A model generated the notes under the pieces. It did no database searches. It saw only the letters and a program-made list of their open reading frames with translations, and had not been told where the DNA came from. From NCBI GenBank assembly GCA_028713895.1, contig JAQTNH010000001.1:886610-950609 (forward strand): DNA of 64,000 nucleotides. The letters are read 5' to 3'. This DNA comes from Candidatus Nanoarchaeia archaeon. GTDB taxonomy: Archaea; Nanobdellota; Nanobdellia; CSSed11-243R1. Positions 354-64,000 of this stretch are shown here, one piece after another. The first letter of the stretch is position 1. Each line of letters begins with the position of its first letter. The translations under genes were made by a program, and so were the position numbers.

Positions 354-490
354 CGCCGAGGCCAGGATTTGAACCTGGATGTCCGTGAGGACACTAGTTC
401 TCTTGATAGCATCTCTCTTTTCAAAGGTTTTCTCTTGAAAGAGAAAAGCTTTTCGAGACTAGCGCATTAACCGGATTCTGCCACCTCGGC
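354..490 (-). tRNA. tRNA-Ser(CGA) with a 52-nt intron at the canonical 37/38 position
   Basis: Minus-strand read: acceptor GCCGAGG/CCTCGGC, 3-bp D stem, anticodon stem CTAGT/ACTAG with loop CT-CGA-AA (anticodon at 455..453), long variable arm TGTCCTCACGGACAT, T arm CCAGG-TTCAAAT-CCTGG, discriminator G; intron 400..451; 85 nt when spliced; CCA not encoded. Confidence 0.85.
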
Positions 491-570: not shown

Positions 571-1170
571 ATGGCATTAACACTAATCGGCGAAGCGCAT
601 CCTGAAGAATTGATGTGGCAATATCATTTGGCCAAATCAAAACATGAGCTGTTTGCAGGCAGTGACTTTGGAAAGAAATTTGTAAATCTTTTTGAACAAA
701 AAAGAACATTCGGGGAAATAGACGATTCTTATATACAAAACCTGAATCAAACGCTTAATGATGAGTCCTATGTAATGTCCAAAATCAACGGGATAACAGT
801 TGAGGAAACAAAAATTATTGATGAAATAAAACCCGACGTAATCGTCCTTGAATCCATTGGAATGAAAAAAAGATTCCCTCTTCAAAACAAGATTTATGTG
901 GAGGGTGTTTTACAGGTTATCAAAACCTCTTTCATGAATGCATATTATTCTGAGACTGGGAACTGGCACGAAAAGATGATTAAAGAAAGAGATTCCAAAT
1001 TTGTCCAAAAAATTGATGAAATCCTTGAAAGATATAATAATGTTGTAGGAATTTTTGGAGCAATACATATGCCTGGCATTTGTGAAAAATCCAAGAACAC
1101 AGCGCGCAATATCTTTTTTGTTCCTGAAAATCTCAATGTAATATCTGCGCTTAAAGATTATCTCACCTAA
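571..1170 (+). CDS. hypothetical protein, weak TraB/GumN-like pattern
   Basis: LIGEAHPEE ... KPDVIVLESIG ... GAIHMPGI loosely matches the GTAH / PD.V.VE / G.H..G pattern of TraB/PrgY/GumN proteins. Confidence 0.4.
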   Translation: MALTLIGEAHPEELMWQYHLAKSKHELFAGSDFGKKFVNLFEQKRTFGEIDDSYIQNLNQTLNDESYVMSKINGITVEETKIIDEIKPDVIVLESIGMKKRFPLQNKIYVEGVLQVIKTSFMNAYYSETGNWHEKMIKERDSKFVQKIDEILERYNNVVGIFGAIHMPGICEKSKNTARNIFFVPENLNVISALKDYLT

Positions 1171-1205
1171 TTCTTTATATATCCCTAGCCCTTTTTAAAA
1201 AGTAT

Positions 1206-3758: not shown

Positions 3759-4108
3759 ATAAGACCTTGAAAAAAGCCATTCACTGGACACCGCGTGTGC
3801 TTTCAATACTTTTCATTTTGTTCCTAAGCGTGTTCGCATTGGACATTTTCGACATGAGCCTTGGCATTTGGGGGACAATTGTAGGGCTGTTCATGCACCT
3901 AATTCCAAACTTTTTGCTAATTGGAATCCTTGTTGTGGCATGGAAATGGGAGCGCATAGGAGGAATCCTTTTTATTGTTCTTGGCATTGTGTTCACGCTT
4001 TTTTTCCAGACATACCAGAACATAATGAGTTTTTTATTAATCAGCGGGCCAGTGTTTCTCGTTGGAATATTATTTATAGTTGACTGGTATATTGCAAATA
4101 AGAAGTAA
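3755..4108 (+). CDS. 4-TM membrane protein
   Basis: Four hydrophobic helices; ATGA start/stop overlap with the upstream ATPase. Confidence 0.6.
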   Translation: MNKTLKKAIHWTPRVLSILFILFLSVFALDIFDMSLGIWGTIVGLFMHLIPNFLLIGILVVAWKWERIGGILFIVLGIVFTLFFQTYQNIMSFLLISGPVFLVGILFIVDWYIANKK

Positions 4109-4128
4109 TTGTGTCGGGGGTGTTTTAA

Positions 4129-4356
4129 TTGAATCCAATTAAAGAAGACTATGTAGGGCTTGGCGAAGGCAAGGGCATGAAAATACAACTTTGGCCAAAC
4201 AGGGTTGTAATCCAGCGAATGGAAAAGAAAGAAGGCAAGTGGGAAAAAACACAGGACATTGCCATGAATATACGCGTGCTTGAGTTCCTCGCTTCAAGGC
4301 TACCCGCATGGATTGTGATGATGGACGCGCAGAAAGAAGACAGAGAACAGTTTTAA
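4129..4356 (+). CDS. hypothetical small protein
   Basis: 75-codon ORF with TTG start (alternative ATG at 4177); no recognisable motif. Confidence 0.3.
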   Translation: MNPIKEDYVGLGEGKGMKIQLWPNRVVIQRMEKKEGKWEKTQDIAMNIRVLEFLASRLPAWIVMMDAQKEDREQF

Positions 4357-4731
4357 TTATTTTTTGGTAATCCTTACTTTTGGAACATTTTCTAATTTAA
4401 CTTCAAGTACAGCCCCGTATGCGCCCGGGCAGTTCATTTCAAACATCTTACGAAGAGCCGCAGCATCTTTATTGTATTCCTTGCACCCGACGTAAATAAA
4501 TTTGTTATCTGCATCAAAACCCACAACAGCATAGTGTCCAAGCTTGGGTTCAGAAGAAGGGATTACTTTACCTAACGCATAATCAACAAGAAAATCATTG
4601 AAATTCTGCTTAAGTTGTCTGTCTTTTTCTTCCATCCATTCCATTTTTCTTATGTCCTCTGGGGTAGCTTGCTTTACAGATTGTGTGGCTGGTTCTTTAT
4701 ATGCGCCGCCACCAAAAATTTCTCCGCCCAT
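4357..4731 (-). CDS. hypothetical protein
   Basis: 124-aa ORF with normal composition; no motif recognised. Confidence 0.5.
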   Translation of the reverse strand: MGGEIFGGGAYKEPATQSVKQATPEDIRKMEWMEEKDRQLKQNFNDFLVDYALGKVIPSSEPKLGHYAVVGFDADNKFIYVGCKEYNKDAAALRKMFEMNCPGAYGAVLEVKLENVPKVRITKK

Positions 4732-5709: not shown

Positions 5710-5910
5710 GTGGCAATGTCAAAGTGTGAAATATGCAACCAAAAAGTCAAGACAACTTATGTGTGTGACGGATGCGGAGCGCGCTTCTGCGAAAAATGCG
5801 GAAATGTGAAGAAGCTCACATGCAAGGATTGCATAAGCTATGATGAGGAGATAAAAGGCGGATACAAGCCCGAACAGGAAATCGAGATAGAAATCGAGGA
5901 CACTGAGTAA
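5710..5910 (+). CDS. zinc-ribbon protein
   Basis: CEIC ... CDGC ... CEKC ... CKDC cysteine pairs; acidic tail. Confidence 0.55.
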   Translation: MAMSKCEICNQKVKTTYVCDGCGARFCEKCGNVKKLTCKDCISYDEEIKGGYKPEQEIEIEIEDTE

Positions 5911-5912
5911 TT

Positions 5913-6239
5913 TTATTCTATTTTACACAATTCTTCCAGGGAGAGCTTAACCAGTTTGCCGTGTTTCTTTTCCGCGGGCCTGATATATTCTTTAATCTTC
6001 TCCTGGGCCAAGCCTTTGTCGTGACTTATACAGCGATAACACATCTTTTCAAAATCTTTCCAGCCCCAATAAGGCAATTTCTCGCCTTTCTTCGTTTCAG
6101 TTACTCTGACTTTGAAATAAGGACCTGTGCCGCAATTTTTTATAACATCAGGGTCTGTAGCGAAACATTTGTAAATTTCTTTACCGCTGACAGTATCCTT
6201 TCTCCTTAGAACAAAGAAAATATGGTTATAATATGCCAT
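5913..6239 (-). CDS. hypothetical protein
   Basis: 108-aa ORF; no motif recognised. Confidence 0.5.
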   Translation of the reverse strand: MAYYNHIFFVLRRKDTVSGKEIYKCFATDPDVIKNCGTGPYFKVRVTETKKGEKLPYWGWKDFEKMCYRCISHDKGLAQEKIKEYIRPAEKKHGKLVKLSLEELCKIE

Positions 6240-7348: not shown

Positions 7349-8990
7349 TCACTATCTCGACCTTGTCCCCGAAAATTGCCTTCAGGGACTCTATTGTTTT
7401 CTCCTTGACTGTAGCAGTTTCAGAGACTTTAATATTTTTACGCTTTTTGGTGAGCTCTTCAACATCTGTTTTTTCCATTTTTTCAAGTGAGCCGTCATTT
7501 CTCATGCTTGCCCTGTAAGTTGTTGATTCCGGGTGGGTGATGTCTGCTATTATGAACACCTCATTTCCCAGAACCCAAATCTCCGCTTTTTTGTCCTTGT
7601 AAACAATCTTGAACCTGAACTTGTCAGTGCCTTTCAGCTCGCGGATTTTTGCAAATCCAATCACAGCTTCGATGAAATCATGCGCGTTTTTCTCCAGGCG
7701 GTTGATTTCTTCCTGCGTGACCAGCCCGCGCTGATAATCATCCTTTACGTGGTCAAAATAACCAAGGAACTCTGTGTATGCCGCAGGCATCACTTTTTTC
7801 TCAACCATCGTCTTCTTGAATTTGTATGCCAAGTCCTTGTCAGACGACTTGACGCCAAGGGTCTCAAGCACAGTGCGCATTCCCTTGCGCGACAGGTAAT
7901 CTATCTCCTTTATCTTTTCCCCGATGTTTTCTTTTTTCATCTTTTCAAAAAGCTTGTTTATATCCTCGGAGAACTCTGTTGCGCGCGCAATGTAAACATC
8001 AATCAATTTCCCGTTTACTTCCCTGCTGTTGTCGTGCTCAACGCGCTTGCGGATTGCGATTATTTCATCGAGCCAGTCAACATATTTCTTGTTAAGAAGC
8101 CCCTTGTCGACAAAATAGCGCTTTAACAGATGCGGGGTTTCGCCATAAGCAGGAGGCGCGATTCCTACAAACATAAGCGCTGCCTGGGCTGGGTTAAGCA
8201 TTGCATAGTAGAGCTTTTCTATAAGCATTTCATCAAGATTGCTCCTGATTACTTTTGTGAGAAGATTTCCTGACTGGATAAATGACTTGATTGCCTCGGG
8301 TGTGGGCTTTATTTTTCCCATCTTTAGCAGAAGCTTCCATGGCGAGAAAAGCCCCTTATCAAAAATGGGTACTCCGTCGCGCAGAAGCGTGAAAATAACA
8401 GGGTTTGCATCGCGCACATACTCCCAGAACTGGGTGAGGATGTACACCTGGACATTGATGTCCTTGCCAGATTCAGCTGCGATTCCAAGGACAATCTTCC
8501 GGATTTTTTCGCGGATTTCAACACGCGTGGTTTCCTTGACATCAGTGTCGTCTATGACAACTCCGAAGTCAACGTCCGAGCCCTTTACTGCCTGCCCTCG
8601 CGCCCAGGAGCCGAAAAGCACGAGTGAGATGAGGTACTTGTCAAACTTTTTTGCCAATCCTTCGCGCATTGCAAAGCCGCATTTCAAGGCGTTGATAAGT
8701 CCGGTATCATAAATAACTTTTGAGTGGACTATGTCCTCTGTCAGCTGGTATTTACCGTCGAAAAACGCCTGCCACAAGCCGGAAAGCGGAAGAATGTTGA
8801 ACTCTTTTGCATCCTTTGTGAACTCAGCCGCGTTTTCAGCAGCTTTTGTAAAGGCAAGGTCGTTTACAACTGCAATTATGACTGTGCTTTTTTTGCCCTC
8901 TTTCTCTATCTGCTTCTCAACAATCGTGAGAGTTTCCTTTTTGAACTTTTTAAGAAAAGCTGTTACCCCACCTTTTTGCGCTTTAGCCAT
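7341..8990 (-). CDS. nucleotidyltransferase-domain protein
   Basis: GSWARGQAVKGSDVDFGVVIDD (GS-x9-DxD minimal NTase motif); long helical C-terminal region. Confidence 0.65.
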   Translation of the reverse strand: MAKAQKGGVTAFLKKFKKETLTIVEKQIEKEGKKSTVIIAVVNDLAFTKAAENAAEFTKDAKEFNILPLSGLWQAFFDGKYQLTEDIVHSKVIYDTGLINALKCGFAMREGLAKKFDKYLISLVLFGSWARGQAVKGSDVDFGVVIDDTDVKETTRVEIREKIRKIVLGIAAESGKDINVQVYILTQFWEYVRDANPVIFTLLRDGVPIFDKGLFSPWKLLLKMGKIKPTPEAIKSFIQSGNLLTKVIRSNLDEMLIEKLYYAMLNPAQAALMFVGIAPPAYGETPHLLKRYFVDKGLLNKKYVDWLDEIIAIRKRVEHDNSREVNGKLIDVYIARATEFSEDINKLFEKMKKENIGEKIKEIDYLSRKGMRTVLETLGVKSSDKDLAYKFKKTMVEKKVMPAAYTEFLGYFDHVKDDYQRGLVTQEEINRLEKNAHDFIEAVIGFAKIRELKGTDKFRFKIVYKDKKAEIWVLGNEVFIIADITHPESTTYRASMRNDGSLEKMEKTDVEELTKKRKNIKVSETATVKEKTIESLKAIFGDKVEIVID

Positions 8991-46588: not shown

Positions 46589-47545
46589 TTACCGGGAAAT
46601 ATTGATCCGGTTTCTCTGATTGAATTTCATAAGAACCTTCTTTTTATGTTCGGAGGAGACCTCTGTGTATATCTGGGTAGTCGTGATACTCGCGTGTCCG
46701 AGAATCTCCTGGACAGCCCGGATGTCAGCCCCGTTGCTCAACAACATGGTAGCCATGGTATGTCTGAGACAATGTGGGGTATAATGCTTCTTTATTCTGG
46801 CCAAATCGCAATACTTTTGAAACACGTTCTCGACCGAATATATGCTCAGTCGGCCTGAGTACTTGTTCAAAAACAACGCTTCAGACTTAGTTAAAACACC
46901 TTTCCGGCACGAAACGTACTCATTCAGGGCATCAAGGACCTCATTTGAGGATATAAAGATAATGCGCTCTTTTCTTCCTTTTCCTATTATAAGTACAATC
47001 CTATCTGCAAAATTCACATCCTGAACGTTCAAGGAGACAAGTTCCCCTATTCGCATCCCCGTCGAAAACAGGAGTTCGATCATAGCCCTATTCCGCAGTA
47101 ATAGGAACGTTTTAGCTGGTGGAGCCTTATCCAAGGACTGCATCGCTCCAATTACCGTTTTTACATCTTTACCAAGCATTCGCAACATACGTTTGATTTC
47201 CCGGACGCTTAGAACCTTAGGTAGTCTCTTTACAATTTTGTATCTTCTCTTTATCCTTCTCGTAGGGGAGTCATTCAAAACGTTCTCGTCTTCGAGAAAT
47301 GTAAAAAATACCTTTAACGTGGCAATTTTTCGCTTCATGGTCGTGTCCTTATATATGTGCTCTTTTTCCAAGGAATTGATGAAATGCCTTACGTCATCTG
47401 TCGTGAAGTCCTCTAACGGTTTTTTAACATAGGAACTCTTCAACTGCTTAAGGTCGCTGGTATAGGCTTTTATCGTCTTTTCAGATAGATTCCTTTCCGA
47501 AGAAAGGCTATTTAAGAATCTAGAAACGCCGGTATCGAAGTCCAT
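46589..47545 (-). CDS. XerC/XerD/XerA-like tyrosine recombinase
   Basis: STGMRIGEL, HCLRHTMAT, LGHASITTTQIYTEV. Confidence 0.85.
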   Translation of the reverse strand: MDFDTGVSRFLNSLSSERNLSEKTIKAYTSDLKQLKSSYVKKPLEDFTTDDVRHFINSLEKEHIYKDTTMKRKIATLKVFFTFLEDENVLNDSPTRRIKRRYKIVKRLPKVLSVREIKRMLRMLGKDVKTVIGAMQSLDKAPPAKTFLLLRNRAMIELLFSTGMRIGELVSLNVQDVNFADRIVLIIGKGRKERIIFISSNEVLDALNEYVSCRKGVLTKSEALFLNKYSGRLSIYSVENVFQKYCDLARIKKHYTPHCLRHTMATMLLSNGADIRAVQEILGHASITTTQIYTEVSSEHKKKVLMKFNQRNRINISR

Positions 47546-47607
47546 ATGATCATCATATACGGGATTCGTGGATATTATAAAAAATTATTCAATCAAAATA
47601 TACTCAT

Positions 47608-48612
47608 TTATCCCTCATTATTAATTTTATTTAATTCCAATGTTTTTTTACATTCGTTCAATTTTAAAATAATCTGCTTCCCCAACTCTCTCGTATTTAT
47701 CTCGTTCCCATTTTCTCTAAATAAATTGATTTTTAATTCCTTTTCCTTATTAATCTCTCGTAGTATTGGTTTGGCAACTTGTTCTTCGGCGGTATTCATA
47801 TCGAATACTTTCACGGTACCGTGCTCAAACCTGACAATCCAATAGGTTCCTACGTTGATTTTTACTTCAACATCATCGATGACATCTCCAAGATTCTTTG
47901 GCTTCTTCATGGTTAAATCGGGTGTAAATTCCTCTTTAACATGATAGATAAAAGCTTTAAGTGTATGTCTCAAATATTCGGTTAAAGGATTGATCTTTAC
48001 ATCCGCTTCATCTTGAAGAAGTCCCATCAATAATGGAACAAGTGCATATTTATTATTAGACTTGCTATACCATTCTAGCCAGCAGGCTTTGTGTTTTCCT
48101 AAAATTTCCTCTGTTAATGCCGAAAACTCGGATTCAATTTTAGGATTCTTCTCCGGTGTTATGAATACCATCGTAATTTTTGTATCATTATTTCCAATAT
48201 CTTCTTTAAGTCCTAAAAATTCTTCTAAGAATTGTGAGTTATCGATGGATTTCATATTTATTTTGTTTTCTATTCCAATACGATGCAATTCGATTGGAAC
48301 TCTATTTTCAGATTCCTCATCTTCTTTAGAGAAGACTTGTATTTGAATGTCGATTTTTCGTGTTTTATCTCCGATTTTATATGGAACTTCAAAATTAATG
48401 TCTATGTCAACATTTTTATCACATACATTTTCAAATCGTTCTCGATCCTCACAACCTTCTCCTACTAACGTTAGGAATTTTTTTAAAAAAGCATCACTCA
48501 ATCCATGTGTTTCATATGGTTTTAAAAAATAACCAATTATCGCACTATGATTTTCTTCGTCAAGGCGACCATTACCTTGGCTTAGAACCGTGAAGATGTT
48601 CATAGATATCAA
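47608..48612 (-). CDS. PD-(D/E)xK nuclease-family protein
   Basis: NIFTVL..EENHSAIIGYFLKP..HGL, RKIDIQIQV, IGIENKINMKSIDNSQFLEE. Confidence 0.5.
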   Translation of the reverse strand: MISMNIFTVLSQGNGRLDEENHSAIIGYFLKPYETHGLSDAFLKKFLTLVGEGCEDRERFENVCDKNVDIDINFEVPYKIGDKTRKIDIQIQVFSKEDEESENRVPIELHRIGIENKINMKSIDNSQFLEEFLGLKEDIGNNDTKITMVFITPEKNPKIESEFSALTEEILGKHKACWLEWYSKSNNKYALVPLLMGLLQDEADVKINPLTEYLRHTLKAFIYHVKEEFTPDLTMKKPKNLGDVIDDVEVKINVGTYWIVRFEHGTVKVFDMNTAEEQVAKPILREINKEKELKINLFRENGNEINTRELGKQIILKLNECKKTLELNKINNEG

Positions 48613-53712: not shown

Positions 53713-54441
53713 TTATATCGATCTTGCGAGACGAAAACCGATATTACTATCACGTTGATCAGAGACGATACTATTACGCGTAGCCGATGTACAGCATGTA
53801 GCTGCGGACATGTACCAAATACCACCGCGAATAACGCGTTCAGAACCCGTTTCAGGTCCCTTAGGATTGTCCTTTGGGCTATTTCTGTAATAATATTTTT
53901 CATACCAGTCTTCGCACCATTCCCATATTTTTCCATGCATTTCATAAAATCCCCATGCGTTTGGCTTTTTCTGACCTACGATGTGGTTTTTCTTGAAACC
54001 GTACTTAGGTCCAAACCAAGCGTATCTTTCTAATAATTCTCCGTTATCTCCAAAACAAAAATTCGTACTACTTCCAGCTCGGCAAGCGTATTCCCATTCA
54101 GCTTCAGTAGGAAGGCGGTAATTTATCCCCCCTTCTATCTTATTCAATAGCGCAATAAAAATTTGGCAGTCATCCCAGGAGACACAACATATTGGGAGAT
54201 TCTTGTTACCAATATTTCTACATTTTAACATACCAGATGATTGAGTTGGACGGTGTTCCCATTTGCCCATTACAGCTTCCCAATCCTTTTGAGTTACGGT
54301 ATATATTCCAAGATAGAATGGTTTTGAAATACAAACTGTATGTATTGGATTATAATACACATCTCCCATCTCGAACTCACCAATAGGGACAAGATTAAAC
54401 TTCATACCAATACTGTTTATTTTATCAACTAGAACGTCCAT
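53713..54441 (-). CDS. FGE-sulfatase (SUMF1/FGS) domain protein
   Basis: YRLPTEAEWEYACRAG, NAWGFYEMHGKIWEWCEDWY, RVIRGG. Confidence 0.8.
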   Translation of the reverse strand: MDVLVDKINSIGMKFNLVPIGEFEMGDVYYNPIHTVCISKPFYLGIYTVTQKDWEAVMGKWEHRPTQSSGMLKCRNIGNKNLPICCVSWDDCQIFIALLNKIEGGINYRLPTEAEWEYACRAGSSTNFCFGDNGELLERYAWFGPKYGFKKNHIVGQKKPNAWGFYEMHGKIWEWCEDWYEKYYYRNSPKDNPKGPETGSERVIRGGIWYMSAATCCTSATRNSIVSDQRDSNIGFRLARSI

Positions 54442-54760: not shown

Positions 54761-57700
54761 TTATTTCGGAAAATCTGAGTCAATTTTTATTAAAACATCT
54801 GATATTTCATTAATTCTAGTTCGTATTCTTTTCAACATTTTTTTAGTAACATTTTTTTCATCTTTATTTTTAAATTGTTCTATCATTTTCATTTCAATAT
54901 GAACCGAGTATGCTCCTATTAATCTATATCTTTCGATGTCAGTAATTTTTTTATCTATTTTTATAAAGTCGATTTCATAAAATAAGCGTTCGCCCAATGA
55001 TAAATTAAAGTCCATCATCAATTCAATTGTCGTTAGAGCTAGATTTAATTTCATCTTGTGAATTTTATTAAGAAATATATTTTTTAATTTATCTCCATAT
55101 TCTTTATTGTAGGTCGTAATAACGGCGTATAACATAGAAATGCTATAGGCAGTAAAATTATCGAATACCTTTTTATCCCTAATTATTCTTTTAATTTTAT
55201 TAAAACCTACATTTTTAATTAGTTTATTTATAGAATGACTATCATTCCCAGGAGAATTTGGAACCCAAAATTTTTTTACACTTACATTACGAATATAGTT
55301 CCAATCTCCTCCCTCACTAGTTATAGGTTTACTTGTACCACCAGCAAAAATATTTAAACAAGTAGAAAATTCAATGTTATCAAGATTATCCATAAGTTTC
55401 TTTGTTATTAATGTATATAACATTTTTTTATATTTTGTCGATGTTTGCGCTATTTTTCTAATACAGAGACAGGCGTCTATGAGATTGTGATTCGTTTTTA
55501 ATTTTGTGGTTAATAATGGATATATGATTTTTTCGTCACCAGTATTTGTTCGTAATATAGTGATGAAAAAATCACATAATTCTCCAATATTCTCAATTGT
55601 TATTAATTTATTTTTAGACTCTTTTAATAAAATTTTTCCAATATCACTACGATCTAATCTGTATAAGTATAAAAAATAAAAAGAAAGTTTTTCCATACAT
55701 ATACTATTTTCATCGGATGTCATATATAAATATTCTAAATAATCGTTAATATATGGATCCCTTATTGTAGTATTTATTTTACATTTGAAAAATGTTTTTA
55801 TTAATAGTCTTGTATTTATTTTATTAATTATCTCAATTGCTTTCTCTATGCTTCCTTCTGAAATATCAATTAAATATATCATTTTAAGATCAAATTGATT
55901 AATATAATCAATCTGTTTTACAATGTTGTTTGTATCAAGTTTCATCGTGATTCTTTCAGCTAACTTTTGATTTAAATGTTTTATTCTAATTATTGCGGGT
56001 GGGGGTGATAAAAAATTATATGCGCCAACAATCTTTAAATCTGGATTTTTCATGTCAATCTTTTCAATTACTTGAAAAAAATATTTTTTAAGGATATCTG
56101 AATGATATGCGATTAGTGAAACATTGTTTGATTTATTTATTCTTGAACAGAATAATTCAATATCCATCTTAAAAATAATTTGTTCCATTTTGTTTTTAAT
56201 CTGATTTTCAATTAATTCTAATAAATCAAATGTAAAAGAAATATTATCTGTTTTATTGATCTCTTTTATAAAGAAGGAAATTATCCGATCATCCTGAAGG
56301 ACATTTTTTTTAACAATATCTCGGTTTGGAGCCTTGCTATACCAGGAAACCGAATCTCGTAAAAGATGAACCCAATTTTTTGCTCCATTTATTATATAGC
56401 AATATAGTATATTACTTAAACCGTCGTCGTATTCATTACAAATTGTATGGATTCTATAATTTAAATATCGTACATAATCAAATTTTTTTGCAGTATCATA
56501 ATATAGTTCTGCTATCGAAGTATGACTCATTCCAATTAAATTTTCGGATTCAGTAAGTACTTTATCTGCTAACATTTCATCTATAAGTAAAGGATTGAAT
56601 TTTAATACCTTGATTAGAAAGAATCTGTCAATTTGAATAGAAAACATCATCCAATAAAATGAAGATATTAGTGTAAGTAACTCCAAAGGACTATCATTAT
56701 AATTTGCATACTTTTCCTTAACGTGTTGAAACTCGTATTCGTTAATGAATGAAAAAACTTGTTCATAATTAATATTTTTACCGTCCCAGCTCATTAATAA
56801 ATATGCAAGTTTCCATAAATCATGTCCACTTTTATCAATTAATTCATTTTTTCTTTCGACGGGTATTTCAATATACGTTTTTCGTTTTAAATAAGAGTTA
56901 TAGTTGTCTATTATTTTATCAATAGCATTTCTTCCTATAATATTATAAAACTGTATTTTCTTTTCTGTAAATGCAAATAGTAAATCTTTATTTAAATAAT
57001 CCATTTCATCACGATGCAATCGGGATGTAATAATAAATGTAATATTTTCAAATGTATTTGTTGCTTCAAGAATTTTATTAAATATTTCAATATAGTCCTG
57101 GATATCTTCAAAAATTAAAATAGTTCCATCAACAACGATTTTATCGATATCAATAATAATTGATTCGTGATGGCCTTTTATGAAATCCCGATCAAAATAA
57201 TAGATTTTCAAGCACTTCGTTTCTGCAAGAAGATATCCAACATATTTTGCAATTATACTTTTTCCAGATGCGGGATCCCCATATAAATAATGAAATCGAA
57301 AATCGTTTAAATTTTTTATAATAATATCTACTTCCTCTCGTTTTACAATACAACTGTTAGGATCCATAAAATCCGTCCATATTGGACCAAATGAATTAAA
57401 ATTAGGTCTTGTTTTTTCTAATGAAATGTCCTTGTATAATGCTTGTTGGATGATTTTAAAATATTTTGGTTTTTTCTTGATTTCTTCTTCAATAATTTCG
57501 ACAAGTGTTTTTTCGTTCTTTTCGTTTCTGACAAAGAGATACCTAATGTTCTTTGGTTTTCTGTTATGAAAATTGATTATAAATATCTGTTGTTCATATT
57601 CACTTGTTAATTCGTTATATCTGAAAAAGACTCCTAAATTTTTTATTTCCTTATTTAGCGTTTCAATTATATCTCGACCGAAATTACAGTCCTTTAAAAG

Positions 57701-58264
57701 ATTCATTTTCTTTCTTATGACTTTTTCGTATACACGCTCAATTTCAGTTTTTATTATAGTCTCTTTATTAAGAAATGTCTCACTTAGAATTTTGTTCCAA
57801 TCTATTTCAGAACATATCTCTTGATTAAATTTAACTAAAAAACCAAAGCCTTCTTTTTTTATTTTTTTCATATCTTTATTTTCTATTGCTTCGAGTATTT
57901 CTTTCCGTTTATTACTGTCCATTAATTTATTTTGTAATTCTTCATCAGTTATTAGTTCTGTAACGGTATCAATGGAAAAATTAAAAACTTGATCAAGAAT
58001 TTTTCTATTGATATACGCAATATTAAATGATTTTCTTCTTTGATATTCTTCCAATGTAGTATTGCCCCACGCAATTAGATATGACTCAACAGTAAAATCT
58101 TTTAATTTTTTTAACTCAGTCTTATTTGGATTAAGTTGATTTATTGTTATAATGTCTATTTTCCTTTTTTTTGAGAATAGGGGCCTATTTAAGAGACGAT
58201 ACAGGTCTCCCCCTTCGTTGGGGTTTAGTATTAATTGCTTGTTCTCTATTCTTGATTTAAGCAT
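54761..58264 (-). CDS. 1167-aa STAND-like P-loop NTPase with a long helical C-terminal region
   Basis: Walker A LYGDPASGKSIIAK, Walker B GTILIFEDIQD, about 330-aa N-terminal region, about 700-aa alpha-helical repeat-like tail. Confidence 0.65.
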   Translation of the reverse strand: MLKSRIENKQLILNPNEGGDLYRLLNRPLFSKKRKIDIITINQLNPNKTELKKLKDFTVESYLIAWGNTTLEEYQRRKSFNIAYINRKILDQVFNFSIDTVTELITDEELQNKLMDSNKRKEILEAIENKDMKKIKKEGFGFLVKFNQEICSEIDWNKILSETFLNKETIIKTEIERVYEKVIRKKMNLLKDCNFGRDIIETLNKEIKNLGVFFRYNELTSEYEQQIFIINFHNRKPKNIRYLFVRNEKNEKTLVEIIEEEIKKKPKYFKIIQQALYKDISLEKTRPNFNSFGPIWTDFMDPNSCIVKREEVDIIIKNLNDFRFHYLYGDPASGKSIIAKYVGYLLAETKCLKIYYFDRDFIKGHHESIIIDIDKIVVDGTILIFEDIQDYIEIFNKILEATNTFENITFIITSRLHRDEMDYLNKDLLFAFTEKKIQFYNIIGRNAIDKIIDNYNSYLKRKTYIEIPVERKNELIDKSGHDLWKLAYLLMSWDGKNINYEQVFSFINEYEFQHVKEKYANYNDSPLELLTLISSFYWMMFSIQIDRFFLIKVLKFNPLLIDEMLADKVLTESENLIGMSHTSIAELYYDTAKKFDYVRYLNYRIHTICNEYDDGLSNILYCYIINGAKNWVHLLRDSVSWYSKAPNRDIVKKNVLQDDRIISFFIKEINKTDNISFTFDLLELIENQIKNKMEQIIFKMDIELFCSRINKSNNVSLIAYHSDILKKYFFQVIEKIDMKNPDLKIVGAYNFLSPPPAIIRIKHLNQKLAERITMKLDTNNIVKQIDYINQFDLKMIYLIDISEGSIEKAIEIINKINTRLLIKTFFKCKINTTIRDPYINDYLEYLYMTSDENSICMEKLSFYFLYLYRLDRSDIGKILLKESKNKLITIENIGELCDFFITILRTNTGDEKIIYPLLTTKLKTNHNLIDACLCIRKIAQTSTKYKKMLYTLITKKLMDNLDNIEFSTCLNIFAGGTSKPITSEGGDWNYIRNVSVKKFWVPNSPGNDSHSINKLIKNVGFNKIKRIIRDKKVFDNFTAYSISMLYAVITTYNKEYGDKLKNIFLNKIHKMKLNLALTTIELMMDFNLSLGERLFYEIDFIKIDKKITDIERYRLIGAYSVHIEMKMIEQFKNKDEKNVTKKMLKRIRTRINEISDVLIKIDSDFPK

Positions 58265-59823: not shown

Positions 59824-60033
59824 AAAAACGAAAATGGGCAATCTTCTTCTATTTAATCTTTTTAAATTAATAGCATCAAATTCCCTATCAATCTTCTATA
59901 TCAATTATACCATTTATTCCATTACTCATTCCCTTATCTGGGTGATGTACTCTTGAAAACCATTATATACCCTCCCCGATGAGGGACATGATGCTTCCGG
60001 TCCGATATGACGCGGTGCATCAGAAGGTAAAAA

Positions 60034-60330
60034 ATGAAACGCATAAAAGAGTATCAGAGCGATTTGACCGGTGCGCCAGAGAACAAGAAGATAACCCTGC
60101 TCTACAAGAGCAGTGTCGGCTTGGGCCAGAACGGCACCTGCGAGGCCTCAGAAAGCGATACAATAAAAGAGGTAAAGGAGAGGATCGCTGCAATCGAGGC
60201 TGTAGATGCCACGGGTATCGCCCTGATGTTCGGGGACAAGATCCTCGACGACGGCTGCCGCCTCAAGGAATACGGCATCAGGGACCAGGACAAGATCGAG
60301 GTCGTGCCCAAGCACCGGAGGGGTGGGTAA
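60034..60330 (+). CDS. ubiquitin-like protein ending in Gly-Gly
   Basis: C-terminus ...DKIEVVPKHRRGG followed directly by TAA; beta-grasp-like ..IALMFGDKILDDGCRLKEYGI.. Confidence 0.75.
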   Translation: MKRIKEYQSDLTGAPENKKITLLYKSSVGLGQNGTCEASESDTIKEVKERIAAIEAVDATGIALMFGDKILDDGCRLKEYGIRDQDKIEVVPKHRRGG

Positions 60331-60333
60331 GCG

Positions 60334-60681
60334 TTGGGAATCAACCCGGACCTGAAAGCCAGGTTGTCAAGGGAATCCATCGCAATCCAGGAAGAGGGGA
60401 TACCATTAAGGCCAATTACCCCTCTTCACTGGGTTGGCCTTATCAGATACAGGGGACATGTGGTTCCAAAGCAGGATTACAGATTCACAATAGAGATTCC
60501 TAAAGCATACCCGTATCTTCCGCCGACTGTGACATGGAAGACCCCAGTGATACATCCCAACATATTCATTTCCGGATACGTATGTATCAACATACTGAAA
60601 GACAGCTGGCGGCCTAGCTACTCCCTTATAACAGTATATAAAAGCCTTGCCTGGCTCCTTGACAATCCTAGCAATGATTAG
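60334..60681 (+). CDS. E2 ubiquitin-conjugating (UBC-fold) enzyme
   Basis: HPNIFISGYVCINILKDSWRPSYSL...LLDNP (HPN + Cys84 at 60583-60585); TTG start 3 nt after the Ubl stop; no internal Met. Confidence 0.8.
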   Translation: MGINPDLKARLSRESIAIQEEGIPLRPITPLHWVGLIRYRGHVVPKQDYRFTIEIPKAYPYLPPTVTWKTPVIHPNIFISGYVCINILKDSWRPSYSLITVYKSLAWLLDNPSND

Positions 60682-60691
60682 AGGTGAAAGC

Positions 60692-61390
60692 ATGAGGAAA
60701 AATGACAGCAGTACCGATAGGTTTCTTGCTAACGAAATGATGAACGAGGCCCCCAAAGCAAAGCGGCCTATAAAGAAAAAGGTCATTATGCGCAAAAAAA
60801 AGAAAAAGGCAAAGAGGAAGGATACAACTGAGAATGATGAAAGTACCCAATCCACCCCTTCTGCAAAATGCAAGAATCCCACTTGTCACGGCAAGATTAT
60901 CGTCGTTGCCATGGTGATCACCAAGATGTTCCTATGGGCAGTGGCTCACCCGGGTATGGAATGCGCCGGACTTCTCATCGGAACGGTAAAAGACGGCGTT
61001 CTGGTGATTTCCGACGTTTTCCTATGCAAGAGGGCGAGGGGGACCCATGTATCTATTGAAATTGACCCTATTGATTTCATAGATGCCTTAAAGACCTTGA
61101 AAAAAGAAGAGGGAATATATGGATGGGCGCACAGCCATCCTGGATTTGGGCCATTTATGTCTGGAACAGACGTCACTACACAAAGGGATTTCCAGAACCT
61201 GTTTCCAATGGCAGTTGCGCTGGTTCTGGACCCATTTCATTATGGCGCAATTGAATTCAAGTTCTTTAGAATCAGGACCTCGGACCCTGAGCAAGTCGAG
61301 GAAATACAATACGAATGGAGGCAGGAACAAAATGATACACAAAAGGCAGACCTTGATTGGCGGCTGGGACCAAAAGTCGGTTTCAAATAG
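60692..61390 (+). CDS. JAB/MPN+ (JAMM) isopeptidase with a lysine-rich N-terminal tail
   Basis: MECAGLLIG and WAHSHPGFGPFMSGTD (HxHx7Sx2D, His codon at 61130); alternative starts at 60647 and 60674. Confidence 0.85.
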   Translation: MRKNDSSTDRFLANEMMNEAPKAKRPIKKKVIMRKKKKKAKRKDTTENDESTQSTPSAKCKNPTCHGKIIVVAMVITKMFLWAVAHPGMECAGLLIGTVKDGVLVISDVFLCKRARGTHVSIEIDPIDFIDALKTLKKEEGIYGWAHSHPGFGPFMSGTDVTTQRDFQNLFPMAVALVLDPFHYGAIEFKFFRIRTSDPEQVEEIQYEWRQEQNDTQKADLDWRLGPKVGFK

Positions 61391-62039
61391 AAAAGTGGCT
61401 GTTATTGCGGAAGGGGCATCAGAATCCGCAGCTACAATCGGCTGTGCGCGCATTGGCATAGGAAGCCTAGTTGTTGTAGATTATGACATCCTTCAGGAAC
61501 ATAACCTTGAGAATCAGGCATATACGGAAAAACACCTTGGCATGCTCAAAGTTGAGGCGATAAAGGAGATAATTCGTGAAATTGACCCCAAAATTGAGGT
61601 TATTGCTTATGCTAAGCGTGTTGAAGAGCTGACAAACGAGGAACTGAAGGCGGATGTGTTTCTTTCAGGCCTAGATGCAATTGCACCCAGGTTCTATGTT
61701 AACTGGAAGGCTGTACAACAAGGTGTCCCATTAATAGATGTTGGGATAGAAGGGTTTGAAGGAACCATAAGAACCGTTATTCCTGGAAAGACCCCCTGCC
61801 TCGAATGCCATCCTGCGCTAATGCCTGAATCAAAAATAAAGCATGGTTGCTCCGAAGACCCGATACCATCAACATACATCACTGCCCAGATTGGGGCAGC
61901 AATACAAGTCATGCAGTTGATTAAGATAATTCACGGATGGGAAGTTGAGCCGTATATCTGTTTCAACCTGATGACTGGCAAATCAAATGTCGTAAAAATT
62001 AAAAGAAATCCCGACTGCCCGTTGTGCGGAGGGATATAG
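61332..62039 (+). CDS. E1-like ThiF/MoeB-family adenylyltransferase (divergent nucleotide loop)
   Basis: KRQTLIGGWDQKSVSNRKVAVIAEG...LVVVDYD...NLENQ, LDAIAPRFYVN, CLEC...CPLC; overlaps the JAB gene by 59 nt. Confidence 0.75.
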   Translation: MIHKRQTLIGGWDQKSVSNRKVAVIAEGASESAATIGCARIGIGSLVVVDYDILQEHNLENQAYTEKHLGMLKVEAIKEIIREIDPKIEVIAYAKRVEELTNEELKADVFLSGLDAIAPRFYVNWKAVQQGVPLIDVGIEGFEGTIRTVIPGKTPCLECHPALMPESKIKHGCSEDPIPSTYITAQIGAAIQVMQLIKIIHGWEVEPYICFNLMTGKSNVVKIKRNPDCPLCGGI

Positions 62040-62055
62040 AAAAAGGAGGAATCTC

Positions 62056-62274
62056 ATGGTTGACATACTTGCACCTGAAGAGGACAAGCCGGTCGTGATT
62101 CAAATCCTGGAGTTTGCCCTTCTTGGAGTCACGCTATTGTGTTTCATCGGCTTCGCTATCTGCGCGATACTCAACGGAATGACTGAAAATTATCTAGTGC
62201 TGATAATTTCGAGCCTATTCTCCGTTATTTCGGCTGCTATGTTCTTCGTAATCCGGAGTGTGAAAGGAAAGTGA
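62056..62274 (+). CDS. 72-aa 2-TM membrane protein
   Basis: Two hydrophobic helices. Confidence 0.5.
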   Translation: MVDILAPEEDKPVVIQILEFALLGVTLLCFIGFAICAILNGMTENYLVLIISSLFSVISAAMFFVIRSVKGK

Positions 62275-62357
62275 CTATTTTCTTTCAATATAGAAAGAAA
62301 TTCTTTAAATGGTATGCAAAGGCATTCCTTGGGATCAAGAGTATTTCATCAACAAGG

Positions 62358-64000
62358 ATGGATTGGGAACACATAGCCCGAGGCATTAGCACAAACCGGA
62401 CACTGGTATCTTTAATGGTGTCCGTTGACAAATCGAGCAGGGTCTATTTGTCCACGTTTGGAAAAGCGTTTTCAAAGAGAAACGCCAATATGATGGCTGA
62501 GACCTCAATGCACACCTTATCTGCGCTCTTTGCAGGATGCACATTCACGAGCGAGGAACCTGTGCCTCTTTCCCTAACTGCGTGCCCTGCAATTGTCTTC
62601 ATCCTTGGGCAACCCCATATTGGACAAAAAAGCCAATTGAACGAGATAATCCAGGGTCTCAGATCCCAAGACATCACCGCAACGATAATAATGAATGTTT
62701 TTCCAATAACACCACCGATTGATGAAGCCGATAAAATAAAATGCAAAGAGAACCGGGAGACGTATTTAGTAAAAGATGCAAGTTTGATTGTTACATACGC
62801 CGTATTAATTAATGAGGACACACAAGAGAACCTTAATGCTTCTGTCCAGGCGCTCATCGGGCTTGTTGGGAGCGTTTACGACTCAGAGCATTCAAAGATG
62901 AAGGTGTATTGTGAGACAGGAGAGAAGGCTCTGCGTTCATTTGAGAAACTGCTTTGGGGCGATATCTCCTGGGCAACCATTTTGCCTACCCACGAATTCA
63001 TTGCATTCTTCCAAATACCCCCTGACTATGGCATCGAGGTGATCGAGAAACCCGAAATCTACGTGCCACCGCCGACTTCTTTCAGGAATGGGATCAATAT
63101 AGGTCAAATCCTTGGTGCATTCGACGAACCGTTATACAATGGATCTTTGAATCCAAATACAACATCACCTCATATCTTGATAACCGGAACTACGGGGATG
63201 GGCAAATCGAATCTCATCCATCACATCATCGATGGCTTCTTCAAAATCGGTTATGATATAATAGCATACGACCACCACAATGAGTACGGCTTTAATTTCA
63301 ACCTCGGAGAACTTGGCAATAGCACGTTAATTTTTGACCCCAGGATAGTTCCAATAAGATTGAACCCGTTCGAATTGCCACCTGGATTGAGCGGCAAAGA
63401 ACGGGATATCGCGGTAATGGAGACAATAGAGAATTTTATTCACATTATCGAAAAACAACTCGGTTTCTTTGTAGGAGATGTCCAGAAGCCAAGGTGCGAG
63501 AAGCGCCTTCTCGAACTATACAAGGAATCGGATTCGCCACGAATACCGGAATTAATCAGATTATTGAAAGAGGACAAGACCACGAAACTGATGAAAGACC
63601 AGGACAACCTACCGATCAAGCTGTCATCTTTGGAAAAGGGGCTGCGCGGAGAGATTTGCAATCACGAACACACAAACCTGCCGCTTGCCTTTGGTAAGCA
63701 AAATGCACTTTTCTTCGAATTGGAGAAGTACCCTGTTGACATAAGGACCTTCGTAATCATAATGCACCTCACAAGATGGTGGAATAAAAGAATTGCTTCG
63801 AATCCGGACGATCTCAGGCCGACAGTCATTGTTCTTGATGAATTCTCCCACCTAGATGGAGTCCCTGTGGTATTGAAGCTATTGAGTGAATCAAGGAAAT
63901 ACAAGGTGATTTTGGTAATCAGCCTCCAGGGCATCGGGCAGATCCAGGACAGGGCAATGAGGGGGGAGCTGAGCCGTAATACCGATAACAAATTTGTATT
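62358..64000 (+). CDS. DUF87/HerA/VirB4-like ATPase, 3' end outside the window (absent from the ORF track)
   Basis: I translated the frame codon by codon: open from 62208 to 64000. Walker A HILITGTTGMGKSN (63171 onward), Walker B PTVIVLDEFSHL. Start is ATG 62358, or GTG 62271 overlapping the upstream stop. Confidence 0.7.
   Translation, partial: MDWEHIARGISTNRTLVSLMVSVDKSSRVYLSTFGKAFSKRNANMMAETSMHTLSALFAGCTFTSEEPVPLSLTACPAIVFILGQPHIGQKSQLNEIIQGLRSQDITATIIMNVFPITPPIDEADKIKCKENRETYLVKDASLIVTYAVLINEDTQENLNASVQALIGLVGSVYDSEHSKMKVYCETGEKALRSFEKLLWGDISWATILPTHEFIAFFQIPPDYGIEVIEKPEIYVPPPTSFRNGINIGQILGAFDEPLYNGSLNPNTTSPHILITGTTGMGKSNLIHHIIDGFFKIGYDIIAYDHHNEYGFNFNLGELGNSTLIFDPRIVPIRLNPFELPPGLSGKERDIAVMETIENFIHIIEKQLGFFVGDVQKPRCEKRLLELYKESDSPRIPELIRLLKEDKTTKLMKDQDNLPIKLSSLEKGLRGEICNHEHTNLPLAFGKQNALFFELEKYPVDIRTFVIIMHLTRWWNKRIASNPDDLRPTVIVLDEFSHLDGVPVVLKLLSESRKYKVILVISLQGIGQIQDRAMRGELSRNTDNKFV

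Follow-up and report, generated by a model that had tools for sequence, protein, structure and literature searches.

A minimal ubiquitin-like conjugation cascade linked to a HerA/T4CP-like ATPase in archaea: a candidate mobile conflict module

A 64,000-nucleotide (nt) stretch of DNA, hereafter the window, comes from a 956-kb contig of a genome that NCBI labels Candidatus Nanoarchaeia, a DPANN lineage. Towards its end lie four adjacent plus-strand genes, as read from the open reading frame (ORF) list and the raw sequence, which encode a ubiquitin-like protein (Ubl), a ubiquitin-conjugating enzyme (E2), a JAB-type JAMM metalloprotease and a ubiquitin-activating enzyme (E1). The new analysis indicates that these genes form the first part of a conserved unit of six, which is completed by a small protein with two transmembrane (TM) helices, here called TM-B, and a HerA/T4CP-like ATPase, and which in this genome is followed by a serine integrase. 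The favoured reading, to which we assign a probability of roughly 0.4, is that of a mobile conflict module that couples Ubl conjugation to a DNA ATPase anchored at the membrane, where it most likely acts against invaders.

An earlier note, made from the sequence of the window alone, had described a four-gene cassette in accessory DNA of a DPANN-like archaeon. The NCBI label agrees with that placement, but the four genes proved to be an incomplete account of the conserved unit: the end coordinate given in the note, 62274, is the stop of TM-B, the fifth gene.

A complete cascade in four small proteins

The coordinates, lengths and motifs of the four proteins given in the note were reproduced from the ORF list and the raw sequence, as were the 3-nt gap between the Ubl and E2 genes and the 59-nt overlap between the JAB and E1 genes. 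All four proteins pass the curated Pfam thresholds, and for four adjacent genes to do so together is far beyond chance.

The Ubl (60034..60330, plus strand, 98 amino acids) is a beta-grasp protein of the ubiquitin family (PF00240, 1.2e-13; Rad60-SLD, 3e-6), and its best PDB matches are eukaryotic ubiquitin. Its C-terminus, VVPKHRRGG, is followed at once by TAA, and because RRGG directly precedes this stop, the Ubl is encoded in its mature form. The UBC-type mini-E2 (60334..60681, plus strand, 115 amino acids) begins with a TTG codon at 60334, 3 nt past the Ubl stop, and matches PF00179 (UQ_con) at 5.5e-20 over profile positions 29-113 of 140. It carries HPNIFISGYVCINILKDSWRPS, with the catalytic Cys at residue 84 (HPNIFISGYVC). 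Its PDB matches are UBE2C (1.9e-16) and UBE2A/D, and it is 37% identical over its whole length to the E2 of Caldiarchaeum, whose E1 and E2 sequences were taken from the supplement of PMC5654768. Compared with a canonical UBC protein, it lacks the C-terminal helices 3-4 and stops right after helix 2. The family alignment shows that the E2s of all relatives also end just past NPNY, and that HPN and the catalytic Cys are invariant. Assignment of 60334..60681 to the UBC fold and of 60034..60330 to the beta-grasp fold, on which the note had staked its interpretation, is thus upheld by PF00179 and PF00240 matches above cut-off.

The third gene encodes an Rpn11-like JAMM/MPN+ metalloprotease (60692..61390, plus strand, 232 amino acids; PF01398, 9.8e-12; Prok-JAB, 6e-9). 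Its ORF spans 60647-61390, and the likely start is the ATG at 60692, which stands behind a GAGGTGA ribosome-binding site; alternative starts are found at 60674 and 60647. The best PDB matches are Rpn11 (1.2e-18) and the Caldiarchaeum Rpn11-like protein 6fjv (5.6e-16), followed by CSN5. The protein has MECAGLLIG and HSHPGFGPFMSGTD downstream of a Lys-rich N-terminus, and the JAMM motif E...HxHx7Sx2D is intact in the window and in 15 of 17 relatives, the other two having one extra residue. The Lys-rich N-terminal extension of about 60 residues (residues 1-63, 60692-60880) is not found in relatives. Over its first 25 residues, the N-terminus of the JAB ORF (NDSSTDRFLANEMM…) weakly resembles E2 helix 3. 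The idea of an E2 split between two genes was nevertheless dropped: with the parts joined, the UQ_con score went from 71.8 to just 77.9 bits, and relatives have short E2s and JABs without the extension. The resemblance is at most weak, or a remnant.

The minimal E1 (61332..62039, plus strand, 235 amino acids; PF00899, 5.6e-35), whose gene overlaps the JAB gene by 59 nt, is of the ThiF/MoeB/UBA5 type. It consists of a single ThiF domain of the size of UBA5 or MoeB, with neither a Cys-domain insertion nor a Ubl domain, and has two zinc-binding pairs, C156xxC159 and C229xxC232. PDB matches are MoeB (63 bits), ThiF, UBA2, UBA3 and UBA5. Identity to the Caldiarchaeum E1 is 34% over 175 residues (99 bits), and the two share an N-terminal RQxLxGWDQ motif, the CLEC zinc motif and a Cys after CLEC. 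An AlphaFold2 (AF2) model built from eight family sequences reaches a pLDDT of 85.8, and its closest folds are UBA5, MoeB and ThiF (TM-scores of 0.79-0.84). In this model the loop 165-177, which contains Cys173, is disordered, as crossover loops are. Arg5, Lys73, Asp115, both CxxC pairs and Cys173 are invariant in the family; Arg5 aligns with the Arg-finger region of MoeB, and Cys173 with MoeB Cys187 and with the Cys following CLEC in the Caldiarchaeum E1. The cysteine in line with the PMCTIA motif of eukaryotic UBA3-type E1s is the catalytic one. In the alignment of PMC5654768, the Caldiarchaeum Cys after CLEC lines up with that motif.

The earlier description of a four-component set of unusually small enzymes with no E3 ligase holds as well: no RING or zinc-finger family was found in the window cassette, among its neighbours or in the related loci.

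A two-TM protein and a DNA-type ATPase complete the unit

TM-B (62056..62274, plus strand, 72 amino acids) has hydropathy segments at residues 11-44 and 45-69. Its gene is preceded by a GGAGG ribosome-binding site, and its stop overlaps the start of the ATPase gene (GTGA). The protein has no Pfam family match, and it is kept at the same position in 17 of the 18 loci that reach it, at 32-60% identity.

The ATPase belongs to the HerA/FtsK/T4CP superfamily and is 855 amino acids long, of which the N-terminal 576 lie in the window (62271..64000, plus strand). The last 1.7 kb of the window look free of ORFs because this gene, starting at 62271, runs past the window end. An exact-match lookup recovered the window DNA on two Logan contigs, one of which, L001, is identical across a 12.7-kb overlap and carries the gene on to window-equivalent position 64838. 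Matches above Pfam cut-off are DUF87 (1.6e-11), TrwB_AAD_bind (3.6e-11) and TraG-D_C (1.4e-5). There are partial matches to TraD, CedD, VirB4 and TraC in NCBIfam and to mad8, HerA and DndH in PADLOC; all NCBIfam matches fall far under the equivalog cut-offs (103 bits against a cut-off of 600 for CedD), and HerA 4d2i matches at 1.8e-4. Walker A (GTTGMGKS) and Walker B (VIVLDEF) are conserved in the family alignment. The C-terminus comprises a winged helix-turn-helix (wHTH) and a conserved motif, EH…D[IV][RK]A…E[IV]E[TA][GC]K, which is typical of PD-(D/E)xK folds and suggests a PD-(D/E)xK-like domain, while an N-terminal region of about 280 residues is unique to the family. The ATPase itself has no TM segment, and the two-TM protein is translationally coupled upstream of it.

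Relatives were sought with the E1 in a word-indexed protein search, in GTDB genomes, in JGI metagenomes and in an exhaustive HMMER scan, and a further search was made with the ATPase; the two together yielded about 18 distinct related loci. A word-indexed protein search with the E2 returned the E2 itself alone. Mapped by tblastn, gene order is constant wherever contigs reach: Ubl, E2, JAB, E1, an optional small TM protein, TM-B and ATPase, with tight or overlapping junctions within the cassette. All six genes are under purifying selection, with dN/dS values of 0.09-0.22 in two pairs of relatives.

The most distant locus, L025 (7414-12289), bears directly on the strength of this linkage. Its TM-B is 50% identical to the L005 protein and its ATPase 47% identical to that of the window, but the upstream set is remote: a 94-residue protein ending in EIGG, a 132-residue protein, a JAB-like protein and a 266-residue E1 with 25% identity and with GxGGxG and NLSRQ motifs of the canonical kind. 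The 132-residue protein has no family match and is possibly a non-UBC E2. That TM-B and the ATPase are kept beside a Ubl/JAB/E1 set of only about 25% identity indicates that the link between Ubl machinery and pump is old and robust.

The family is rare: in a set of 1.84 billion representatives, only nine 50%-identity clusters match at E<=1e-30. Among the hosts, three metagenome-assembled genomes (MAGs) of Thermoplasmatota can be named, Thermoplasmata M8_bin1702, a Methanomassiliicoccales MAG and Thermoplasmatales SG8-52-3, and the spread is patchy, over Thermoplasmatota MAGs and one Nanoarchaeia genome. Integrases adjoin three loci: a serine integrase in the window's genome, and tyrosine integrases in L022, directly upstream of the cassette, and L026, with a remnant of the integrase 3' end some 220 nt before the Ubl-E2 gene. 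The serine integrase, with Resolvase and Recombinase domains (phrog_95, 8e-84; 45.5% GC), lies outside the window, at window-equivalent 64850-65800, directly after the ATPase. No convincing direct or inverted repeats were found around the 59.9-65.9 kb block, and no tRNA gene stands next to any cassette locus; the missing repeats do not count against mobility, because serine integrases leave no long repeats.

Base composition sets the block apart. At about 59.98-65.8 kb it is coherent, with a GC content of 44-55% for the cassette and a window mean of 38.8%. The note had spoken of a GC-richer block, and the figures bear this out in part; the real outliers are the AT-rich flanks on both sides, at 26-35% GC.

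A viral origin was considered and set aside: there are no relatives in IMG/VR, no ATPase relatives in the phage collection and no PHROG match for the Ubl, E2 or JAB.

Several loci show additions to the basic plan. Most have an extra small TM protein with an LCWxYW motif, which is not present in the window. L005 and L007 have extra small genes (a TM protein of 104-107 residues and one of 83 residues) between E1 and TM-B, and L015 has a second Ubl-like gene (7653-7889) at that place. In L026, the 3' end of the tyrosine integrase gene recurs as a 51-nt repeat (5878-5928 and 7556-7606, 86% identical), whose copies flank a 448-residue gene and leave the C-terminal integrase remnant. Further upstream in this locus (903-4474), a unit of about 210 nt occurs five times between small ORFs.

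A Ubl-E2 precursor and its apparent fission

The Ubl and E2 genes of the window share one reading frame, with a single TAA codon between them (60328-60336). Across the 13 lineages with a readable Ubl C-terminus, Ubl and E2 are one polypeptide in ten, and 12 have either this fusion or a GGC end. The fused junction reads PKHxxG[GAS], after which comes a linker of about 20 residues. The three lineages with separate genes (the window, L005 and L007) keep the two in frame with one stop between them, which is TAA in the window and TAG in L005 (2070-2093) and L007 (1677-1700); past this stop come a ribosome-binding site and a new start. To judge from these sequences, the split arrangement looks like fission of an ancestral fusion exactly at the GG maturation site.

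This arrangement suggests how the cascade might run. In a first step, the JAMM protease would free the Ubl C-terminus, as the chemistry of its family suggests. Most relatives need such processing because their Ubl is fused to E2 or ends in GGC, and the Rpn11-like protease is, by sequence and analogy, the putative processing enzyme in these members; the window copy needs none, because the in-frame stop sits right after GG. JAMM pre-processing has been demonstrated experimentally for the Caldiarchaeum Rpn11 (PMC5654768, PMC6043591) and for BilC (PMC10557695). A homodimeric E1 of the UBA5/MoeB type would then adenylate the terminal Gly, with the conserved Arg5, Lys73 and Asp115, and take up the Ubl as a thioester on Cys173 in its flexible crossover loop, before handing it to Cys84 of the E2. 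With no E3 in the set, the E2 would place the Ubl directly on lysines of a dedicated target, from which the JAMM protease could remove it again. The co-inherited membrane-anchored DNA ATPase complex may be either the regulated effector or the substrate, and the whole unit would act as a conflict system on small integrative islands, directed at incoming DNA at the membrane.

Relation to known conjugation systems

The note had likened the cassette to the minimal eukaryote-like ubiquitin cassettes of archaea, and this likeness stands: E1, E2 and JAB are closest to eukaryotic or Caldiarchaeum enzymes. The operon of Caldiarchaeum and Asgard archaea (ubiquitin, E1, E2, small RING E3 and Rpn11; PMC3082918, PMC5654768, PMC6043591) and the cassette share the ubiquitin, UQ_con and Rpn11-type JAB families, and in the cassette, too, an Rpn11-like protease is expected to mature the Ubl precursor. 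However, the cassette lacks the small RING-finger E3 of that operon. Its E1 has 235 residues, compared with at least 337 in the partial Caldiarchaeum sequence, and the alignment of the two skips about 70 residues after the Cys. The E1s of Clusters I and II of PMC5654768 have both a catalytic-Cys insertion and a C-terminal Ubl (UFD-like) domain, neither of which is present here. Further differences are the E2 without helices 3-4, the fusion of Ubl and E2 in most members, the constant link to a two-TM protein and a HerA/T4CP-like ATPase, often with integrases, and the hosts, which are Thermoplasmatota and a DPANN archaeon instead. The family may overlap the archaeal gene clusters grouped as 'Cluster III' in PMC5654768, whose taxa that text leaves unlisted.

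The comparison with the bacterial Bil systems was borne out for the parts list and not beyond it. Types I and II of BilABCD (PMC10557695) have in common with the cassette a set of Ubl, E2, JAB and E1 with no E3, a JAB that pre-processes a Ubl with a conserved Gly and extra residues, and a mobile or defence-island context. In contrast, BilD pairs IAD and AAD in a pseudo-dimeric E1 that has a helical Cys insertion (PMC10557695), whereas the cassette E1 is a single 235-residue adenylation domain; BilB is not a classical HPN UBC protein, whereas the cassette E2 is one; and Bil has no linked TM protein or ATPase, whereas the cassette has both. Neither the Ubl nor the E2 matched a Bil or Cap model. 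PADLOC 2.0 and NCBIfam 20 gave no Bil model match, the presence of Bil models in either library being unconfirmed. The complete PDB match lists for JAB (42 entries) and E1 (46 entries) contain no entry named Bil or other bacterial deubiquitinase or E1, and no Bil or bacterial E1 is among the top 50 Foldseek matches of the E1 model, on the assumption that published Bil structures are in the PDB copy searched. The minimal E1 of UBA5/MoeB size, the short UBC E2 and the lack of a RING E3 mark the cassette as a stripped-down relative of the eukaryote-like archaeal cascades and not as a Bil homologue.

In type II CBASS, Cap2 (an E2-E1 fusion) and Cap3 (a JAB) use E1/E2/JAB conjugation to regulate a co-encoded effector pathway, and they serve as a model for Ubl machinery that controls a neighbouring enzyme. 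The cassette differs from CBASS in having a separate Ubl and no CD-NTase, and its E1 matches Cap2-like proteins through the generic ThiF core only (PADLOC E1-E2, 4e-18; NCBIfam cap2_3, 4e-9). UBA5, the homodimeric E1 for UFM1, and MoeB/ThiF resemble the cassette E1 in that they have one adenylation domain, carry two zinc-binding CxxC pairs and place a Cys in the flexible crossover loop and not in a separate Cys domain; identity is 22-25%, and the cassette differs in the Arg-to-Asn change in NLxRQ and in its UBC/HPN E2 partner.

The cassette ATPase shares Walker A and B with the HerA/FtsK/T4CP enzymes (TrwB/VirD4, CedD, Sulfolobus plasmid ATPases, HerA, DndH and mad8) and shares membrane association too, here through a separate two-TM protein. 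It differs in its unique N-terminal region of about 280 residues and in its C-terminal wHTH and PD-(D/E)xK-like domain. In Sulfolobales, a Ubl gene adjoins genes for a small protein and a membrane HerA-like ATPase, and the Sulfolobus HerA-like ATPase Saci0667 was found modified by Urm1 in vivo (PMC2948915, PMC4569737). The modifier of that locus is of the Urm1/SAMP type, there is no E2, and the locus is housekeeping and not mobile; it resembles the cassette in gene context. The urmylated ATPase is a precedent for an ATPase as Ubl substrate.

Conflict, transfer or housekeeping

The note had proposed a conjugation-based defence or plasmid-competition system as a candidate, which is plausible, and several observations speak for a conflict module. 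Those prokaryotic E1/E2/JAB sets that have been characterised by experiment, Bil and type II CBASS, act against viruses (PMC10557695). Neighbours of conflict type include a STAND-like NTPase, a TPR-HEPN protein, a weakly TIR-like protein and an RHS toxin. Moreover, the ATPase resembles DNA-scanning defence ATPases and has a nuclease-like tail, which we count, at the level of sequence, in favour of defence.

Other findings weigh against this reading. The ATPase profiles match DNA-transfer ATPases (CedD, VirB4, TraC, TraD, TrwB) and defence ATPases (mad8, DndH, HerA) equally well, its sole plasmid homologues are ATPases of Sulfolobus conjugative plasmids, and no known defence model in PADLOC covers the system. 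The AF2 model of the ATPase, built from four sequences, has a mean pLDDT of 42.5 and is too poor to use; Foldseek on it gave weak HerA, TrwB and wHTH matches only and left the N- and C-terminal domains unclassified. Most fused forms read G-A or G-S instead of G-G at the junction, so that it is uncertain whether the Ubl is released. Throughout the E1 family, HN(L/I)xNQ stands in place of NLxRQ (window 61500-61517, residues 57-62), the canonical ATP-contacting Arg being Asn in every family E1, whereas the Caldiarchaeum E1 keeps it. In the window E1, the GxGxxG loop has become A26-E-G28-A-S-E31 (-S), that is, G26A and G31E (61407-61424), and the window ATPase has 21 private changes at otherwise invariant columns, compared with 4-10 in relatives.

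The main rival, over which defence is favoured, is that the unit is the transfer apparatus of a minimal integrative element, an explanation that we regard as possible but less likely. TM-B and the ATPase would then be a split T4CP- or TraB-like membrane DNA pump, with the two-TM anchor as a separate polypeptide and the C-terminal wHTH recognising element DNA. Such a pump could move DNA between attached cells, for instance between a DPANN symbiont and a Thermoplasmatota host, and the Ubl cascade would regulate it or modify recipient proteins. This explanation can draw on the TrwB_AAD_bind and TraG-D_C matches over Pfam cut-offs, the NCBIfam matches to TraD, CedD, VirB4 and TraC, and the best PLSDB matches, which are the Sulfolobus conjugative-plasmid ATPases, although the identity to these is just 22-25%. 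The N-terminal 70 residues of TrwB form a two-helix membrane anchor. TrwB was crystallised without them (deltaN70, PDB 1e9r), and they are about the size of TM-B. The integrases beside three loci, the presence in two archaeal phyla and the absence from the viral contigs and phage genomes searched would also fit. However, the loci have no conserved relaxase, VirB4 partner, pilus or replication gene alongside the cassette, the conserved PD-(D/E)xK-like tail is unusual in coupling proteins, and transfer leaves a complete Ubl cascade unexplained.

Three further explanations carry much less weight. Housekeeping tagging of the ubiquitin-proteasome kind, as proposed for Caldiarchaeum and Asgard archaea, could account for a JAMM protease closest to proteasomal Rpn11 and for an E1 and E2 closest to the Caldiarchaeum enzymes, yet it is improbable for a rare and patchy family on compositionally distinct, integrase-flanked DNA, where the tblastn map of the loci shows no conserved proteasome, PAN or Cdc48 gene nearby and a constant link to a DNA-type ATPase instead. 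Still less probable is a true BilABCD member transferred to archaea: the four component types and the logic of JAB pre-processing (PMC10557695) agree, but the Ubl, E2 and JAB have no Bil-type PADLOC or NCBIfam match, the structural match lists described above contain no Bil protein, and a single-domain E1 beside a classical HPN UBC E2 departs from the IAD+AAD+CYS plan of BilD. The least probable is a sulfur-carrier pathway of the MoaD/ThiS-MoeB/ThiF kind, which the fold and size of the E1 would suit, since the Ubl matches ubiquitin and not ThiS or MoaD, a UBC E2 and a JAMM protease are present, and none of the about 18 loci contains a cofactor-biosynthesis (Moa, Thi, Moe) gene. The note had named such genes among the findings that would overturn its interpretation.

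State of the window copy

The conflict module proposed for the family need not be fully active in the window. About 18 relatives read GxGAxGS in the ATP-binding loop of the E1, and among about 19 family E1s with readable loops only that of the window deviates, having lost the first and third Gly through changes of a single base each (G26A, GGG to GCG; G31E, GGA to GAA). A Glu at the third glycine of a Rossmann-type loop should hinder ATP binding. In the window ATPase, the conserved Lys of the ExExGK motif, the putative nuclease Lys, has become Ser, and in the E2 the loop KGKWKG is replaced by RGHVVPK. Together with the private changes in the ATPase, these features could mean that the window cassette is a decaying remnant whose E1 cannot bind ATP and which performs no conjugation, a state compatible with either family model. 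Against this stand six uninterrupted ORFs over 4.8 kb with ribosome-binding sites and overlaps kept, the agreement in sequence of two independent assemblies, and the intact E2 HPN and Cys84, JAMM motif, E1 R5/K73/D115/C173 and Walker A and B. The counts of private substitutions are, moreover, inflated by the long branch on which the window copy sits (no relative exceeds 48% identity to it), and private changes are seen in L018 too, which is just as isolated. Relaxed selection, as a conclusion from these substitutions, is suggestive but confounded by the long branch and was not adopted. A decayed state is accordingly thinkable and somewhat doubtful; with the E1 ATP loop and the putative nuclease Lys altered, the sequence tentatively points to a copy that may be weakened or inactive.

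Implications

NCBI already annotates single genes of the cassette automatically, as E2 and ThiF. In the searchable literature, which leaves subscription journals outside its coverage, we found no description of the cassette and its ATPase link, of the minimal architecture or a Ubl-E2 precursor with fission at GG, of an invariant coupling to a two-TM protein and HerA/T4CP-like ATPase, or of an integrase-borne spread across phyla that includes a DPANN genome. One may put forward, tentatively and at less than even odds, a new archaeal class of conflict or DNA-exchange system, in which an E3-less minimal cascade of eukaryotic type with a Ubl-E2 precursor governs a membrane-anchored HerA/T4CP-like DNA pump-nuclease or tags substrates for it, the unit being carried by an integrative element of about 6 kb between Thermoplasmatota and their DPANN associates.

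If this is true, mobile elements of archaea carry around direct sequence relatives of eukaryotic ubiquitin, E2 and Rpn11 in the form of conflict modules. Complete cascades of eukaryotic type in archaea have been a matter mainly of the genomes of Aigarchaeota and Asgard archaea, in which they are interpreted as the cellular forerunners of the eukaryotic system, while the bacterial cascades, Bil and CBASS, are antiviral and only distant relatives in sequence. The cassette family links both, with classical ubiquitin-, UBC- and Rpn11-type proteins in minimal form on integrase-flanked islands, joined to a DNA-type ATPase. If functional, it would offer a very small system (98 + 115 + 232 + 235 residues) in which to study E3-independent ubiquitylation, a natural Ubl-E2 precursor, and a test of whether ubiquitylation arose in mobile conflict systems before its domestication.

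Genomic surroundings

Upstream of the cassette, a possible archaeal TATA-like element, ACCATTATATACCCT, was read from the sequence at 59959..59973 (plus strand), about 60 nt 5' of the Ubl start codon and within an AT-rich intergenic region of 210 nt (59824-60033). A similar 15-mer inside the ATPase gene is probably due to chance. An Arg-rich ORF of 174 residues (59979-60503, plus strand) overlaps Ubl and E2 out of frame and is called instead of them on the Logan contig L002; it is a spurious call, on account of which automated annotation would miss the cassette.

Directly upstream of the cassette lies an AT-rich foreign block, with a gene for a 1167-residue STAND-like NTPase (54761-58264, minus strand, 25.7% GC; weak nSTAND5 and NPHP3_N matches), adjoined by a 100-residue ORF, an FGE-sulfatase-domain gene (53713-54441) and an HxlR regulator. 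On the other side, beyond the window and after the integrase (L001 13519-18802, window-equivalent 64850-70133), L001 encodes a 198-residue protein with weak TIR-like matches, a 471-residue protein without known function, a TPR + HEPN_LA2681 protein (28% GC) and a transposase HTH, a gene content 3' of the ATPase that resembles a defence island.

Further away, the ORFs of the window between 30 and 54 kb (35% GC) are mostly unannotatable. An Xer-like tyrosine recombinase (46589-48612, minus strand; Phage_integrase, 3.8e-43) adjoins a PDDEXK_4 nuclease, with a pentapeptide-repeat protein, an alginate-lyase-domain gene and a GT28 gene close by. At the opposite end of the window, a tRNA gene with a long intron (354-490, minus strand, 137 nt in total), which scores 46 bits with Rfam and was missed by ARAGORN, is consistent with an archaeal genome.

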